Source: Candidatus Aenigmatarchaeota archaeon (lineage in GTDB: Archaea; Aenigmatarchaeota; Aenigmatarchaeia; CG10238-14; SCSR01). From it: 45,612 nt of DNA. A program made the position numbers. This document shows positions 1 through 12,000 of this stretch, in pieces. The DNA lies in the NCBI GenBank assembly GCA_038998625.1, contig JAWADS010000003.1, positions 1 to 45,612 on the forward strand, written 5' to 3'. Numbering within the stretch: the first letter of the stretch is position 1; every line of letters begins with the position of its first letter.

Positions 1-3000
1 AAGACAGAAATCTTTCTTTTGCTTTGTCTGAATTGCAAAGAATTGTATCATTTTTGAATTTATCTAGGCCTATTCATGAAAGAATAGCTAGGTATTATGA
101 AGAAGTTGTAAACAAGGGATTAGTGAGGGGAAGAAGTATAGAATCTGTAATCGCAGCTTTAACTTATACTGTGAGTAGAGAATTTGGATCACCAAGAACC
201 TTAGAGGAAATAGCAGAAGCTGCAGGAGTAGATAAAAGAGAAATAGGAAGAACTTATAGATACATAGCAAGAGAATTGAAAGTAAGAATTTTACCTGCCG
301 ACCCCATAACCTTTGTTCCGAGATTTTGTTCTATGCTAAACCTATCAGACAGAGTCCAAGCTAAAGCTATAGAGATTTTGAAGAAAGCAAAGAAGTTTGA
401 TGTCACAAGTGGAAAGGGCCCAACTGGAGTGGCTGCAGCTGCTATATATATTGCCAGTGTATTAACAGGGGAAAAAAGGACTCAAAGGGAAATTGCTGAA
501 CTTACTGGTATAACCGAAGTGACGATCCGAAACAGACAAAAAGAATTAGTTGAAAAATTAGGAATAGAAGAAGAAGTTGAGAAAAAAGCTAGTGAAGATT
601 AAGAGTAGAATTTCTATTTCTATGTACCTTTTTTGAAGTTGAAGTTATTTTTGTCAATTTCTGAGAGCCAGTGAGACGCTCGCCAAGCAATTTCTTTTAA
701 GACTGATTTTGAAAGATGAAAAGTTTCTGTAGTGTGCCAACGTCCATCTTCTTGCTTTTCCCTCCTTTCTAAAGAAACATTGTTTTTCCATAAGGTCCAG
801 TTTACATTTTTACCTTCTCCTATAGGAATTTTTCCTTTAAGTAATGGTTTTTGTTTTTCTTTTTCTAACCTAAAAATTTCTTTAACTTTTTGTAAATCTT
901 GGGATTTATTTTCACTCATTGAATTTGCTAAACCTTCCATTTTCACCACCCTTTTTTGTTTTGTGAGAAGTGTTTTTATTCAGAATAAATAAGATTTTCT
1001 GAAGCTCATTTCCCACCTTTCATAGTTCTAATTATGTTTGAAGGCGATTTTTTAAAAAAGAAGACTTAAATTTTCTTTATTCTTAGAAAAAAATTCATTT
1101 CGTTTATTTTCTTCACATTTATATAGATTACGGACCACCAATGGTGGTTCTAAATCTATATAAACCCCCTTTTTCAAAACTTTTTTATGTTAAATTTAGT
1201 TCCAACCCTTTATGATACGAAGATTTTTCCTGATCCTCGAGTTTCTGAAATTATTGAAGAATCAAAGAAAAAAGTTGCAGAATATTTCAAAATACCAAAG
1301 TATTTGCTTGATGGTGTTAAATTTAAGATATCCAAATTACCAGAATTTTATCAAATCGGAATGAAATTTGTTGATGGTTATTTGGTAAAATATATAAAGA
1401 AGGTGGGGAAAGTTCTAGGTTTATTTTTTCCTTATAAAAATGAAATCTACTTAGATTATGAAAATTTATACGATGAAAAACTTTTGAAAAGAACTATAAT
1501 TCATGAACTTGTTCACAAGGCGCAAGAAGTTTTTGGAAGGATTTATAGCTTGCCAAGATATTTAATTGAAAAAGAAGCATATGAAGTTACAAATAAATTG
1601 GCTTAATGTTTTATTTTATCACAAAAAATTTTGACTTGCATTTCAGGCATTTTCAACTTATGTTCTTGAACTTTATTTTCATCGTAAATATGAATAACTT
1701 TATAACCAAGCGCAGTTAATGCTTCTGCAATATATCTGCGATGGCAACGAAAGAACAAAAGCTCTGCACAAGTAATTACAACATTTTTATAATCAATTAT
1801 TTCCATCAATTTTTTTATAGCATCTGCAAACTCAGAAGTTTTTGTAAATGCTTCATATCCTTCTTTTCTAAATCCTCCAAGTTCTGGATAATGTAAATAA
1901 TCAATCTTATTTCTCCTTAATTCTATTTCTAAATTCTCCTTGTTAAACCACGGAAATTTTTTACTAGAAGGAAATTTTCTTACATCAATCAATAAATCTA
2001 TTTTGAAATGTTTCAAAATTTTAAGGAATTCTCCAAAGCTTCTAGTGGAGTGACCAATCGTAAAAATTTTCATAAATTTATTTCTTTCCTTCCTCACTAA
2101 TTTCTTTATCTTTCAAAACTTTAGCTAAGTCATGAATCAATTTTCTTACATATTCTCTCATTTCATAAACTTCCTTATCAGAAATCTCATGGATTTTTTT
2201 CTCATCTGACTTTTTCTTTAATTCTTCTACCCTCTTCCATACATCCCAATAATAAGGTTCAATTATCTTTTTATCAATAAATTCTTGTTTAAAGGTTACT
2301 GGAATTTCTTCTTGCTTAGGATTTTTATTTAAACTCTTCAAAGCTGTTAATGCTGCTTTATACATAACTTCATGCGTCCTCTCCAAAATTTTCTCCCTTT
2401 TTCTTATTTCTAAAGCATTTAGCAGGGCGAACATTTTATCCACAAATTTTTCAGCCCTATCTAACCATTCATCCACAAATTGTCCTGATGCATCCATCAA
2501 TTCTTTATGTTCAATTTTTTTCCTAATTTCAATTATTTCCCTTAGCCATTCAGCATATTGTGGTTCCAAAATTCCTGGTTCCACTAAAAATTTTTTCACT
2601 TCTTCATAAGCTTTACTTGGAACTGGTGGTGATAAACCCATGAACATTAAAACAGCTTGGGCAGAATTCAGAATAGCATAATAAACATCTTCTGCTAACA
2701 TTAACAATTTTACAGTTTTTGCCCTCATAATTTTCTTTGGTGCCCCTTCCATGTAATTTTCTATAGCTTCCCTTGTGGTTGGAATTCTACCCATTTCTAA
2801 AAGTTTTTTAATTGGAGCAAAGAATCCAGTATCATAAAGGGGCAAACCTTCTTTAATGAAATTGTATATTATAGGATGAGCTACTCTTGCGTAATCCCAA
2901 AATTCAGTTAGAGTATAGCTAGGCTGTACAGAAATTTTTTCAGAAATCTCCTTTGCTATCTTTTCCATTTCTTCATCTAGTTTGTCCAAAAATTCTGGTG

Positions 3001-9000: not shown

Positions 9001-12000
9001 ATCAGAGGGCAGGAGAAATATTGAGAAGAATTTTTCAAGTAGAAACTGCAGATTATTGGGAAAGGGATTTTCGTTGGGACATTTCTTCAGATCCAAGAGA
9101 TTTTTTTGTTAGAATTTTTATTAACAAAGGAGTTGATGTGAGAACAAAAATACTTGCTGAAGTGGTTATGCAAGGAAAACAGCCCAGTGATCCTAGCAAG
9201 AATGGTAAGGTTACAATATTTATAAGTGCAAGATTAATCACAGAATATAGAATGGATACAATTTTTCAAAAATCCCCTATTTACAAATTTTTCCTTTGGT
9301 TATACCATAAAACCCTTTACAATGAAGTAAGGAGAGGTTATTTAAGTTTTTGTCAAAATCTTTTAACTAAAGTATATAATGAATTCAGATCTGTTTTGGA
9401 AATGTCAGTAAAAGTTTAATATTAAACAAACTAAATTGTGTTTATGGCCTTCAAAGATTTTCTAAAAAAATTTTTTGGAATAAAGTCAAAAAAATCAGAA
9501 AGCTTGTCATCTTTAGAAATTCCAACAAAAACACCTTCACCATTACCTTCCCCCATCTTAACACCTTCATCTCCTCCTTCACCATTACCTTCCCCCACTC
9601 CTTTGGCAATTAAAGAAAGTACAGGAATAGAAGGATTAAACGCTAAAATGGATTTAGTTTCAACACAATTAGATAATTTAAAAATTCAATACGATACTTT
9701 AAATCAAAAAATTGATTCCATAGAAAAAATGGTATCAGAGCTTTATAAAATGGCTAAGGGTTAAGACTCCTCTTCTCTACAACGCTCGCAAATCCATTGC
9801 CCATTAACAAGCTTTATATGAGTTGACTCTTGCTCACATGCTTCACATATGTTTATATCTACCTTTTCCCTTTCCGAAACAATTTCTATCATTTCATGAT
9901 TTCTTGGTTTATTAAAAGGGAAATACCCTAAATTTAAAAAATCCAAGTTTAACATTCTACTAAACATTTTGGCTAATCTAAAATCTTTTTCAAATAGCCA
10001 CCAGAAAACTTCCTTTGCGTAACAATAAACACATAAAACAGTTGGATTTGATTGTTTGCATTTAACACAAAATGTATTGCCTTCTTCTGTTGTAAACATC
10101 TTCACCAATTTTTGATGGAGTTCATTAAATTCTGGAATTAAATCAGGCTCTGCTGAAAGAAGCCAAGCTGTAACACTTTCCTTAAGGCAATTTACACATA
10201 AAAAATTAGAAATTCTTTCTAAACACATTTTACAAATTATCAATTCTTGTTTCAACTTCTTCCCCAATTCAATGTTTTTTTCAATTTATTGTTATATGGT
10301 AAAATAAAAAACTTCAAGGTAATTTAATAATTTTAACATATATATTATTTTCCCCTAAAAAGAAAAGTTTAAATATAAAAAAAACATCTTTTTTTTAGAT
10401 AAAATGCCAAAAAGTTTAAAAATTTTCGACGATTCAAGCGAAATTTTAATTCATGAGCTCATAAAAGATGGGAGAATAAAATATACAACCTTAGCAAAAA
10501 AACTCAATGTAACTCCTGCGGCTGTAAAAGAGCGGGTTGAAAGGCTAATAGAGAAAAAGATTATTAAGATAAGCGCCTTATTGAATCCTCAAAAAATTTA
10601 TTCCCTTATTGCTTCTATTGGTATAGAAGCCGATGCTGAAGCTGTTTCAATTATAATAAGAAAAATAAGAAATTGCCCACTAGTTTATAATGTGATAAAA
10701 ACTTCTGGAAGTCATAATTTAATCATTGATATGGTGGCGCCAGATTTGAGCGTTATTGATCATTTTATTAATCAACAAATAAGGAGTGAGCCAGGAATAA
10801 AACACGTAGAAGTTAATATTGGCAACTCATTAGTAATTCCTGAATTTCTTCAATTGAGGTTATTCCATTCCAACGATCCGGATTATGCCCCGTGCGGATT
10901 AAGAAAAAATGATGAAACGTGTTGTCAATCATGCCCATTTTTTTCTAGAAAAGTTTCTAAAAAAGAAATAAGGTTATAAAAATGGATAAGTTAGAACTAT
11001 TAAGACAATTACAACAAGAAATTAAGAAATTGCCCGAGAAGGATAGAAATAGATTTTTTGGTAAATTTTTTGTGAGCATAATTTCTGCTCTTACAAAAAG
11101 GCTAATTAAATATGAAGGTTATTCAGCTACTCATACAATACTTCAGAGAGAAATAAATGCCATTGGAAGAAGAGATGCAAAAGAAATTGTGAAGGTATTT
11201 GGGATAAATGATAAAACCCCAGAAAGTGTTTCAAAGGTTTTGAAGATAGCAGCATTACTTCTAGGATATGAGCTGGATGTTGAGAACGGGGAAACAATAG
11301 TAAAGGAGTGCCCTTTCGCAGTTATGGCTAGGGAAACGAAGGAGCCACGTATTGCTGAGATATGCTCTTGGTATTGTAATGGAATTGCAGAAGAAATTTT
11401 AGGCCCAAGTTACCTTTGGAAAGGGTATCATGACTATCAAAAAGACATTCCAAAATGTTATTTTAAGGCTGTTAAAAGAAAGTAAAAAGGAGGAAAGATT
11501 TAAATTGTTTAAATTTATACTTAATAAGGATTTAAATGGTATTTGAATTATTAGATGCAGGACAACTAGAAGATTTTCTTAAAATTACTGATGAAAAGGT
11601 AATTGAATTTGCCGAGCGGCACAATCTTTATGAAAAAGAGGAAGCTTTAACATCAAAACTATATACATCAAATTTATATAAATATGCTAAAGAAAGATTT
11701 TTTAAAAGGGGGAAAAGATTCAGGCCCGCCGTTACATACGCTTCTTGTAAGGCAATCAGCGGTGAAATGGAAAAAGCAACACCTTTTGCTGTTTCAATAG
11801 AACTAATACATAACGGCTACCTTGATATTGACGATGTTTTTGACAAATCACCACAAAGAAGAGGTTCACCAGCAACTTGGACCATAGTAGGTCCTGAAAG
11901 AGCAATTTTATGTGGATTAATTAACTGTGATGTATTACCTCATATAATCTTAAATATAGGTGTAGAAGAGTATGGTTGGGACAGCGAACTTCTCCTTTAT

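Follow-up and report, generated by a model that had tools for sequence, protein, structure and literature searches.

The window, by which we mean the whole 45,612-nucleotide stretch of DNA analysed here, contains a group of genes that is best explained as two divergent operons (Table 1). One of them (mp48-mp53-g165-g164-g163-g162, with the DUF488 gene g161 as a loose addition) lies on the minus strand and the other (g167-g168-g169) on the plus strand. The stop codon of g165 and the start of g164 overlap by 1 base, g161 and the end of g162 by 20 bases, and g167 and g168 by 4 bases. The open reading frames of g161 to g165, g167 and g168 sit exactly where a preliminary description of this DNA had placed them. 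That description had recognized a cluster of six genes. Their order is conserved far beyond chance, but the cluster is larger and includes three more conserved small genes, mp48, mp53 and g169. The true start of g167 is probably at 8350, because its homologues begin at MPVFAR.

Table 1. Genes of the two divergent operons, with positions in the window.
Gene	Position	Strand	Description
g161	1603..2097	-	DUF488 protein; loose cluster member
g162	2078..3235	-	385-aa Pol-beta-type nucleotidyltransferase with HEPN domain (R-x4-H) and C-terminal helical extension
g163	3280..4134	-	284-aa Pol-beta-type nucleotidyltransferase; HEPN-like C-terminal domain with W-x4-H in place of R-x4-H
g164	4180..6198	-	672-aa split TIM barrel, predicted metallo-phosphodiesterase; charged helical insert between the barrel halves
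g165	6198..7928	-	576-aa orphan protein
mp53	7968..8129	-	Two-pass membrane protein of 53 aa; each helix has GxxxxxxG motifs; loop motif FP..YQP..M
mp48	8133..8279	-	Two-pass membrane protein of 48 aa; opens the minus-strand operon
g167	8323..8904	+	Orphan alpha/beta protein
g168	8901..9419	+	Paralogue of g167
g169	9438..9764	+	108-aa coiled-coil protein, directly after g168

The cluster is nearly universal in the Aenigmatarchaeota. Of 151 genomes sampled from the phylum, 150 have a match to a g165 profile (88 of the 89 high-quality ones), and g164, g167 and a g162-type nucleotidyltransferase (NTase) are each present in 50 of the 51 genomes of one sample. All four are absent from one and the same genome (G004, 94% complete), and three others (G002, G019 and G114) keep all four although the genes are unlinked, for example with g167 about 230 kb distant or on a different contig. 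The cluster genes co-occur and are co-lost. The earlier homologue counts (172 proteins for g164 and 332 for g165) were reproduced, and the sources, where named, are mostly Aenigmatarchaeota or "archaeon". Among 48 genome loci searched by tblastn (E<=1e-5), g164 was detected in 48, matches to the g162 and g163 queries in 40 each, g165 in 38, g167 and g168 in 35 each, and DUF488 in 12, which confirms the reported order 168-167 / 165-164-163-162. With profile HMMs, g165 is found directly upstream of g164 in 39 of these loci; three of the other nine end at a contig edge (L003, L016, L022) and six lack an upstream g165 (L021, L026, L027, L029, L031, L045). The surroundings are of housekeeping character (TFB, an Obg-like GTPase, GatDE, ribosomal proteins), with no glycosyltransferase, flippase or transporter conserved in the neighbourhood, and no relatives turned up in the viral contigs searched. 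Together, the genes are best explained as a phylum-specific, near-universal housekeeping module.

The two shortest genes, mp48 and mp53, encode what are predicted to be integral membrane mini-proteins. They are homologous to each other (jackhmmer), and the Kyte-Doolittle maximum of mp48 over 17 residues is 2.39. Of the 46 loci with g165, 34 have mp53 immediately upstream of it, and so does the window; a second gene of this type stands beside mp53 in 19 loci, and in three loci (L044, L048 and L055) the two are fused into a four-helix transmembrane protein of 110–112 aa. Outside this cluster, the window's own genome has no further copies of this type. No Pfam family matches mp48, and neither mp53 nor g169 matches any family. 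The g169 protein combines a short hydrophobic N-terminus and a polybasic patch with a Pro-rich linker and a C-terminal coiled coil of about 40 aa; the hydrophobic moment of the N-terminus is not above that of shuffled sequences (0.52 versus 0.47). It directly follows g168 in 30 of the 31 loci in which jackhmmer matched it, and is about 2 kb further on in L023. Two loci of family f16 (L050 and L051), from which g167 has moved away, have a protein of similar build (124–128 aa) beside g165 that is not among the jackhmmer matches of g169.

The assignment of g164 to the xylose-isomerase/endonuclease-IV (AP_endonuc_2) superfamily, proposed earlier from a structural model, is borne out at the sequence level. 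PF01261 matches three g164 orthologues above its cut-off, and the window's own protein has no match to a Pfam or NCBIfam model. We aligned g164 by hhalign to 30 endonuclease-IV-like proteins from the phylum, in which H66, H106, E146, D177, H180, H226 and E254 are invariant. H78 and H125 of g164 pair with these ligands in local mode (probability 47%, E 2e-4), and E457, D496, H499, H537 and E573 do so in a global alignment of the C-terminal half (76%, E 2.7e-6), in which the beta-7 histidine H526 also pairs; the N-terminal half aligns weakly in global mode (12%). All paired residues remain invariant in the broadest alignment. Judged from these alignments, g164 retains an endonuclease-IV-type multi-metal ligand set in a split TIM barrel, with eight of the nine ligands kept and the Asp of the DxH motif replaced by Pro or Ala. 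The 20 invariant His/Glu/Asp residues noted previously were reproduced on 32 sequences, and drop to 13 when divergent families are added. The reported 140-residue arm is lineage-specific: the charged helical insert at about residues 185–335 varies in length, the spacing of the flanking motifs ranging from 108 to 213 residues.

Because its nearest curated family is the phosphodiesterase CbiR, g164 resembles a phosphodiesterase more than a sugar isomerase. The NCBIfam CbiR model matches 2 of 10 orthologues (E about 5e-9) and none of the other eight, over model positions 151–233 of 249 and with 36 bits versus a cut-off of 105; isomerase or dehydratase families reach only E 4-6e-3, and the nfo models do not match g164. 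In the cobamide pathway, the cut by CbiR is followed by re-activation by a nucleotidyltransferase. Cobamide was considered as a substrate and excluded, since none of the 11 relatives searched has CobS and just 2 of them have a B12-binding domain, with none in the window's genome. One locus (L031) offers an independent link: here a g164 homologue sits apart from g165, and ahead of it come a split wHTH-NTase and a stand-alone HEPN gene that are both homologues of g162.

Both g162 and g163 carry an NTP_transf_2/Polbeta domain (PF01909; E 1.8e-9 and 3.3e-10, respectively) with the GS…DxD signature kept, and this signature is invariant across the phylum in both NTases. g162 matches the kanamycin nucleotidyltransferase structure 6p01 (E 2.6e-5) and scores 35.8 bits against ANT(4')-I, for which the cut-off is 350. 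The C-terminal domain of g162 and g163 is HEPN-like, with an hhalign probability of 94.5% to a Pfam-positive HEPN protein; the direct Pfam HEPN match of g163 is weak (E 0.028). Both had been described as KNTase-like enzymes with an RX4H HEPN motif. The KNTase-like and HEPN-like parts hold for the two proteins, but the motif holds only for g162, where R238 is invariant and H243 is present in at least 90% of 40 sequences; in g163 a Trp takes the place of the Arg, and W236, K237 and H241 are invariant in 25 sequences. Likewise, the described pair of NTases does not extend to distant clades, which hold a single one and lack g163 as a separate gene. No other cluster protein is as conserved as g162, with identities of mostly 66–80% across two-NTase loci. 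HEPN domains with an R-x4-6-H motif are usually RNases, and the targets of Pol-beta NTase toxins and antitoxins are RNA 3' ends or proteins.

The remaining proteins are less readily classified. g165 has no PDB sequence match and no Pfam family in the window protein, nor a consistent Pfam match in 29 members, and its relatives among 1.84 billion proteins amount to 250 cluster representatives at E<=1e-3. H110, D111, R113, D150, P173, W216 and P252 are invariant across all lineages, and short forms of about 400 aa retain only the N-terminal two thirds. An hhalign of the two family alignments (probability 100, E 7e-39) shows that g167 and g168 are paralogues. Among the 51 genomes g167 usually occurs as a tandem pair; families f8, f16 and f3 have just one copy. 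The family alignment of g167 shows the motifs GPNP, E..F.WD, KD.D and RTEYPQDT.W; it has no Pfam match in 21 members and no PDB sequence match, and g168 has no Pfam family. g161 belongs to DUF488 (PF04343, E 8e-20), and in 12 of 48 loci such a gene follows downstream of g162 at no more than 3.5 kb, often with unrelated genes in between.

The host lineage consists of tiny symbiotic archaea, in which this cluster would pair phosphodiester-cutting and nucleotide-adding enzymes with small membrane proteins. Gene order and co-occurrence suggest that the proteins associate physically. We tentatively hypothesize, as one possibility among several, that they work as a machine tethered to the membrane, in which cleavage of a phosphodiester is followed by nucleotidylation of the end so produced, RNA or DNA being the likeliest target. 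The products would come together on the inner side of the membrane, with g165 as a scaffold docked on the mini-proteins, g169 as a second peripheral tether and g167/g168 as a heterodimeric adaptor. g164 could hydrolyze a phosphodiester or remove a block of the 3'-phosphate type, and the NTase-HEPN pair would then add a nucleotide to the exposed hydroxyl or phosphate. With an RNA or DNA end as the most likely substrate, this would amount to a cycle of cutting, healing and nucleotidylation. Endonuclease IV removes 3' blocking groups from DNA.

Several observations count against this reading. The DxH Asp of g164 is replaced and the N-terminal half of the protein is weakly aligned; CbiR, the nearest curated family, acts on a small molecule and not on nucleic acid; the genomes already have a separate endonuclease-IV-like protein (about 275 aa, in 40 of 41 sampled genomes); and tethering to the membrane would be no less natural for a lipid or envelope substrate. 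No recognized nucleic-acid-binding domain was found in g165, g167, g168 or g169. A canonical CCA-adding enzyme and exosome genes are present, so that no obvious nucleic-acid function is missing.

The three membrane-associated small proteins indicate that the membrane setting is real, and with two predicted integral-membrane mini-proteins and a possible peripheral tether the cluster could instead serve lipids or their polar head groups. g167/g168 would then extract or carry the membrane lipid, g164 would cleave the head-group phosphodiester like a phospholipase C or D, and the NTases would re-activate the lipid phosphate, with the mini-proteins keeping all these steps at the membrane. The phosphodiesterase-like g164, with a nearest curated family that acts on a small-molecule phosphodiester, would suit this chemistry, as might the Bet v1/START/Cyt-like folds matched by an earlier model of g167, although these matches are weak (TM-score about 0.3). 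The window's genome lacks PcrB, UbiA and CarS, as the preliminary description had stated in favour of lipid scavenging by lipid-auxotrophic hosts. However, it also has no CDP-alcohol transferases, including a phosphatidyltransferase that could use the activated lipid, so no downstream lipid step is visible. Moreover, CDP-archaeol synthase (CarS) is encoded in 33 of 51 genomes, 32 of which have the cluster, and the single cluster-less genome has CarS; the presence of the cluster is therefore not tied to lipid auxotrophy. None of the cluster proteins matches a lipid-related Pfam family, and the enzymes have no membrane segment. The lipid role is thus weakened, and we consider it unlikely. Remodelling or turnover of some other phosphodiester outside nucleic acids (a cofactor, a nucleotide-sugar or polyol-phosphate envelope polymer, or a signalling nucleotide) through a CbiR-type cut, NMP re-activation and transfer seems improbable as well. 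CbiR being the best curated match for two g164 orthologues, the action of ANT(4'), the NTase fold nearest g162, on small-molecule hydroxyls, and a membrane setting that suits envelope chemistry all point in that direction, but the CbiR match is partial and missing in most orthologues, cobamide itself is excluded, and the neighbourhood has no conserved glycosyltransferase, flippase or transporter.

A mainly structural role, in which g165, g169 and the mini-proteins would build a membrane scaffold or cage with g164 and the NTases as bound clients or catalytically dead, is quite improbable. Long helices or coiled coil in g165 (in an earlier model) and g169 (C-terminal heptads), weak HSBP1 and FlaC coiled-coil matches, a faint match of the mini-proteins to the NfeD membrane family (E 0.028) and the lack of a catalytic family for g165 are consistent with it. 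Yet the invariance of the g164 ligands and of GS…DxD in both NTases across the phylum argues for active enzymes, no SPFH, PspA or ESCRT-III family matches the cluster proteins, and the g164 arm does not co-vary in length with the g165 hairpin (rho 0.08, n=28). We give still less weight to a domesticated toxin-antitoxin or defence module fixed in the phylum, with the NTase-HEPN proteins as a type VII-like toxin/antitoxin or abortive-infection switch and g164 and DUF488 as effectors. Weak MntA, CBASS-cyclase and HalB matches and PADLOC candidate models on g161 (PDC-M45B, PDC-M19A), g162 and g163 hint at such a role, but all curated defence matches are far under their cut-offs. In its treatment of the DPANN MNT-HEPN fusion, Makarova et al. 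2019 (PMC6393860) call it "most probably" a toxin-antitoxin module, while suggesting an important role from its unusual conservation and placing it in a housekeeping context in 36 of 67 DPANN genomes. Near-universal and usually single-copy genes, stable synteny in a housekeeping context, the strong conservation of g162 and the lack of relatives in the viral contigs searched all speak against defence.

Returning to the phosphodiester-cutting and nucleotidylating machine that we tentatively prefer, no described system is similar to these nine or ten genes found in nearly every Aenigmatarchaeota genome, and comparisons apply to single components. The conservation of g167, judged by eye, suggests beta strands followed by a long C-terminal helix, compatible with the Bet v1/START/SRPBCC helix-grip fold, but neither g167 nor g168 has a sequence match to any such family. 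CbiR (NF041277) shares the superfamily of g164 and, of the curated families, matches the C-terminal barrel half best in 2 of 10 orthologues, but scores far under its cut-off, and CobS and B12-binding proteins are essentially missing from these genomes. Like endonuclease IV (Nfo; AP_endonuc_2, PF01261), g164 has an eight-stranded barrel whose strands 3 to 8 carry the ligands in matching order (His, His, Glu, Asp-x-x-His, His, His, Glu). Unlike it, g164 is split between strands 4 and 5 by a 200–350-residue insert with the charged helical arm, lacks the Asp of DxH and has a conserved acidic C-terminal tail, PEEEH…EEWKKE. ANT(4'), the type VII toxin-antitoxin protein MNT-HEPN and, going by its description, the DPANN family cls.004259/NEQ050 of Makarova et al. 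2019 resemble g162/g163 in having a Pol-beta NTase domain with GS…DxD ahead of a HEPN-type four-helix domain. The cluster proteins score far under the ANT and MntA cut-offs, and g162 additionally ends in a helical region of about 110 residues. In contrast to the known NTases, those of the cluster form a fixed pair (one with R-x4-H, one with W-x4-H) or a single gene, and they are always retained together with g164 and g165.

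Searches of related loci with tblastn and profiles recovered the gene order that had been proposed for this cluster (168-167 / 165-164-163-162), and each of the 48 loci in the set is titled Aenigmatarchaeota or unclassified archaeon. The preliminary description called the cluster phylum-wide, and this is borne out: a profile of g165, an orphan protein of 576 aa, matches 150 of 151 sampled genomes and 88 of the 89 that are of high quality. The TIM-barrel metalloprotein g164, the orphan g167 and a nucleotidyltransferase of the g162 type (a Pol-beta-type enzyme with a HEPN-like C-terminal domain) are each present in 50/51 genomes of one sample. 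A single genome, G004 (94% complete), is each time the one without the protein and lacks all four. Genes that are no longer linked are still kept, as is g167 in G002, G019 and G114, and several genomes carry g164 and g165 on separate contigs with both retained. Distant clades have one g162-type nucleotidyltransferase (382-455 aa) in place of two. An exhaustive profile search with g165 among 1.84 billion representatives returned 250 proteins at E<=1e-3 and no more, and no relatives of g164 or g165 were found in viral contigs. Given this near-universal presence, the retention of unlinked genes, the few relatives of g165 and the lack of viral ones, the distribution is therefore that of a lineage-specific housekeeping module, and not of a mobile defence island. 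About nine genes are co-inherited. Our literature search found no description of the cluster; the sole related item was a 2019 note on a DPANN MNT-HEPN family.

Two metagenome-assembled genomes have multiple copies of the cluster (L009, L020 and L045 in one, L012 and L016 in the other), and in L045 a fragmented g164 lies next to an intact nucleotidyltransferase gene. These extra copies could reflect real duplication, the decay of one copy or mixed bins. A single in-frame stop (TAG, TAA or TGA) interrupts otherwise full-length matches to g165 in G145, G024, G100 and G007 and to g162 in G014, G043, G036, G006 and G025; sequencing errors, pseudogenes or recoding could account for these.

The window, contig C3, has a G+C content of about 31% over 45.6 kb and belongs to a 469-kb genome that comprises 19 contigs, with an estimated completeness of 91.8%. 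Open reading frames for g161-g165, g167 and g168 were found at exactly the positions previously assigned to them. Two mini-protein ORFs and the small coiled-coil protein g169 are also conserved at the locus, and the unit is therefore larger than the six genes first described: it consists of mp48-mp53-g165-g164-g163-g162(-DUF488), facing g167-g168-g169.

Features of the conserved cluster in the window
Feature	Position	Strand	Remark
DUF488 gene (g161)	1603-2097	minus	
g162, 385-aa nucleotidyltransferase	2078-3235	minus	
g163, 284-aa paralogue of g162	3280-4134	minus	
g164, 672-aa protein	4180-6198	minus	
g165, 576-aa protein	6198-7928	minus	one-base overlap with g164
mp53-type ORF, 53 aa	7968-8129	minus (g165 strand)	in the 394-base g165-g167 gap
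mp48-type ORF, 48 aa	8133-8279	minus (g165 strand)	in the 394-base g165-g167 gap
g167	8323-8904	plus, pointing away from the minus-strand genes	overlaps g168
g168	8901-9419	plus	overlaps g167
g169	9438-9764	plus	directly after g168

A Pfam scan of the cluster recognised the DUF488 and NTP_transf_2/Polbeta domains and gave a weak HEPN match for g163, with no match for the window's g164, g165, g167 or g168. The NCBIfam and PADLOC models added sub-threshold matches to aminoglycoside nucleotidyltransferase, MntA, a cyclase and candidate systems, and nothing further. The surrounding genes are of housekeeping type (TFB, an Lrp/AsnC regulator, an Obg-like GTPase, GatD/GatE, an Lhr helicase, SecY and ribosomal proteins), and the genes inserted among cluster members at other loci are varied and unrelated. 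DUF488 is near the cluster in just 12/48 loci, often with unrelated genes between. A preprint (bioRxiv 10.1101/2025.10.10.680097) describes an archaeal fusion of a ParB-CTPase fold, DUF488 and an HTH, with reported CTP binding, which may hint at a link between nucleotides and the window's own DUF488 gene.

Several other features of the neighbourhood and genome were recorded. Adjoining g169, at 9761-10267 (-), is a gene whose 168-aa product contains several CxxC pairs of zinc-ribbon type; it matches no Pfam family and lies by the cluster in 10/48 loci. At 19541-20832 (+), a uracil-DNA glycosylase superfamily gene is directly followed by a DUF72 gene, and the 1397-aa Lhr-type helicase (DEAD, WH_Lhr, DEAD_assoc; 24981-29174, -) contains an intein with a LAGLIDADG domain. 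Elsewhere in the genome, one of two FtsZ/tubulin matches (G000:C4:20306-21901) is split over a 747-aa open frame, with Tubulin model positions 1-121 and 122-189 about 1.1 kb apart, a sign that this FtsZ may harbour an intein or some other insert.

None of the large proteins of the cluster has a membrane segment. The 48-aa and 53-aa mini-proteins, which are mutually homologous, each have two strongly hydrophobic helices, and the 53-aa type carries GxxxxxxG motifs and an FP..YQP loop. Among the 46 loci with a g165 gene, 34 have this longer type immediately upstream of it. Three loci (L044, L048 and L055) have a fusion of the mini-proteins into one four-helix protein of 110-112 aa, and the window's genome has no copies beyond the two in the cluster. 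The protein encoded by g169 begins with a short stretch that is both hydrophobic and polybasic, continues in a linker rich in proline and ends in a conserved coiled coil. It was found by jackhmmer in 31 loci, in 30 of them directly after g168. In loci of the f16 type (one of the genome families of the phylum), where g167 has moved elsewhere, jackhmmer missed a 124-128-aa protein of g169-like build that adjoins g165. A test of the g169 N-terminus for an amphipathic helix gave a hydrophobic moment no higher than that of shuffled sequences.

The preliminary description took g162 and g163 for kanamycin-nucleotidyltransferase-like enzymes with an RX4H HEPN motif. The nucleotidyltransferase assignment stands for both: they exceed the cut-offs of PF01909 / PF18765 (E 1.8e-9 for g162, 3.3e-10 for g163), their GS…DxD catalytic motif shows no variation among 40 sequences of g162 and 25 of g163, and the nearest solved sequence is kanamycin nucleotidyltransferase (E 2.6e-5, nucleotidyltransferase domain only). 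The HEPN motif, however, is confined to g162, where among 40 sequences R238 never varies and H243 is conserved in 90% or more; g163 has an invariant Trp at the position of this Arg (W-x4-H). Direct Pfam HEPN matches are weak (g163, E 0.028) or absent (g162), and the C-terminal domain of g162 aligns at an hhalign probability of 94.5% with a stand-alone protein that matches Pfam HEPN (PF05168) at E 5e-8. In loci with two nucleotidyltransferases, g162 is mostly 66-80% identical, and no other protein of the cluster is so well conserved. Curated models score far below cut-off on these proteins, namely 35.8 bits against 350 for ANT(4')-I and 23.6-25 bits against 60 for MntA. A role as the CCA-adding enzyme was rejected, because a cca gene of the canonical archaeal kind was found (E 7e-132). 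In Makarova et al. 2019 (PMC6393860), an MNT-HEPN fusion, the NEQ050 family, is described as a DPANN-specific unknown in a housekeeping context, and this conserved nucleotidyltransferase-HEPN fusion is flagged there as a priority unknown. The g162 protein may be a member of the family (DPANN cls.004259).

Pfam scans with whole alignments of the orphan proteins gave no consistent family. The invariant residues of g165 include H110-D111-x-R113 and D150; an HD phosphohydrolase was considered in view of the invariant pattern HD…D..D.H and rejected, since hhalign of the core against 12 HD proteins of relatives gave a probability of 0.2% and none of 29 g165 members matches an HD Pfam family. In one clade (L025-L035), g165 contains an insertion with four cysteines that resembles a zinc ribbon (YCxKC … CxxC) and is absent from the protein of the window. 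The clear paralogues g167 and g168 have no family match and no PDB sequence match, and the Bet v1/START-like fold proposed for them found no match at the level of sequence. In the ESM Atlas, g165 found nothing and g167 only unnamed clusters, of which one labelled mostly Woesearchaeota (score 0.91) is a possible lead.

It had been proposed that the cluster is a lipid-scavenging or lipid-remodelling machine of organisms that cannot make their own membrane lipids. The premise holds for the window's genome, in which searches found no PcrB, UbiA or CarS. Across the phylum, CarS occurs in 33/51 sampled genomes (31/33 outside families f1-f3 and 2/18 inside), the cluster is present in 32/33 of the CarS-encoding genomes, and CarS is also encoded in the sole genome without the cluster. 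Presence of the module hence does not follow the loss of lipid synthesis, which undermines the rationale of the proposal. No CDP-alcohol transferase was found in the window's genome either, and on this ground the module was rejected as a replacement of CarS that feeds such enzymes. A polyprenyl synthetase gene (PF00348, E 5e-42; 11536-12636, +) lies 2 kb from the cluster, an arrangement seen in just 1/48 loci. A membrane-directed role of the module is possible, given the newly found membrane proteins.

The module thus consists of an endonuclease-IV-type barrel, one or two Pol-beta nucleotidyltransferases with a HEPN R-x4-H motif, two integral membrane mini-proteins and four soluble orphans. 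HEPN, Pol-beta nucleotidyltransferase and endonuclease-IV chemistry usually meet at polynucleotide ends, and for this reason RNA or DNA is favoured as the substrate. We tentatively suggest, as a reading that may well prove wrong, a complex tethered on the cytoplasmic side of the membrane, where a phosphodiester end would first be cut or healed and then be nucleotidylated. A lipid head-group or another small-molecule phosphodiester is a serious rival as substrate, although even together these seem rather unlikely. The fusion of nucleotidyltransferase and HEPN domains also recalls type VII toxin-antitoxin and defence systems, but the patchy, mobile distribution expected of these is at odds with presence in 150/151 genomes, and in 50/51 for each further gene, in a housekeeping context and with no relatives in viral contigs; a fixed toxin-antitoxin-like module is less likely, as is a mainly structural role. 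More speculative, and in our view improbable, is the idea that the module is a salvage machine of a new kind, bound to the membrane of host-dependent archaea. With its mini-proteins as anchor, such a machine would capture nucleic acid or phospholipid of the host, both linked by phosphodiesters, at the membrane, cut this material with the endonuclease-IV-type metal centre and re-activate the product by nucleotidylation, and five protein families without relatives outside the phylum would take part. Replacement of the exosome was rejected (RNase PH subunits are present in 13/13 genomes), as was replacement of the cell-division machinery (FtsZ is present in the window's genome); a search for Snf7 found none.

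Genomes of Aenigmatarchaeota are about 0.5-1 Mb in size, yet nine or ten genes are kept almost without exception, which speaks for a core role in the phylum that no textbook covers. For five of the families involved (g165, g167/g168, g169 and the mini-proteins) relatives could not be detected, as tested for g165 against 1.84 billion proteins. The enzymatic parts, a putative multi-metal phosphodiesterase and nucleotidyltransferases, offer assayable chemistry, and G004, having lost all tested parts jointly, is a natural comparison. Once the substrate is known, it should become clear in what way the symbionts deal with nucleic acids, lipids or envelope material, and this would assign a function to the conserved DPANN nucleotidyltransferase-HEPN fusion.

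The alignment of g164 places its barrel in two halves, at about residues 1-180 and 440-600, with an insert between. The coiled-coil arm of 140 residues described earlier is present in the window as a charged arm of 140-150 residues, but it is lineage-specific, and the flanking motifs lie 108 to 213 residues apart. The lengths of this arm and of the hairpin proposed for g165 give a rho of 0.08 for n=28 non-independent loci, which neither supports nor opposes co-variation. The xylose-isomerase/endonuclease-IV-like assignment holds for the superfamily, although the window's protein itself is unmatched: PF01261 matches at g164 positions in three divergent orthologues above the 31.1-bit cut-off (G033:C7, E 1.9e-12; G002:C5, E 3.2e-12; G019:C1, E 8.7e-10), and these matches, together with precomputed assignments in 4 of 120 listed homologues, establish homology to AP_endonuc_2. 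A PDB sequence search with g164, g165 and g167 profiles found nothing below E 0.01.

One lineage (L029 and L031) has a g164 homologue away from g165. The homologue in L031 is preceded by a split wHTH-nucleotidyltransferase and by the stand-alone HEPN protein with which g162 was aligned, both homologous to g162, and this is a second, independent arrangement that links the barrel to nucleotidyltransferase-HEPN proteins. The region (L031 8684-12799) has the 553-aa homologue after a 1022-aa anaerobic-RNR-like gene and the split pair, facing HMG-CoA reductase. At L029 1576-8637, the homologue is upstream of a 1789-aa protein whose N-terminus, judged by eye, resembles a signal sequence. Two roles were rejected for g164, that of a cobamide-remodelling enzyme (CobS in 0/11 genomes, a B12-binding domain in 2/11) and that of the only AP endonuclease (40/41 genomes have a distinct gene that is endonuclease-IV-like).

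Endonuclease IV has a nine-residue trinuclear ligand set. We compared this residue list with the invariant columns (H66, H106, E146, D177, H180, H226 and E254) of A5, an alignment of 30 proteins of the phylum that are endonuclease-IV-like and about 275 aa long, and aligned A5 with g164 to place the latter within the superfamily. The core Glu-Asp-His-Glu metal site on the C-terminal strands of g164 (E457, D496, H526 and E573) is invariant and aligns with the equivalent residues. In profile-profile alignments, H78 and H125 correspond to H66 and H106 of A5 (probability 47%, E 2e-4; 12% in global mode), and E457, D496/H499, H526, H537 and E573 to the remaining ligands (probability 76%, E 2.7e-6). 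The ligand residues stay invariant with the most divergent families included. The best curated model is the CbiR phosphodiesterase (NF041277, E about 5e-9 in 2/10 orthologues), whereas isomerase/dehydratase models reach E 4-6e-3 at best, and 8/10 orthologues match nothing. Because endonuclease-IV-type ligands seem largely kept and CbiR is the best match, g164 looks more like a multi-metal phosphodiesterase than like a sugar isomerase, and its scores place it outside the nfo and CbiR families proper. Eight of the nine ligand positions of endonuclease IV find a putative counterpart in g164, in alignments of moderate probability; the Asp of the DxH motif is missing, with Pro535/Ala536 in its place, and neither the window's protein nor 10 orthologues match the curated nfo model (TIGR00587). 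CbiR, of the same superfamily, matches it best among the curated models, but at a top score of 36 bits, far below the cut-off of 105 bits, and in genomes from which the cobamide context is largely absent.
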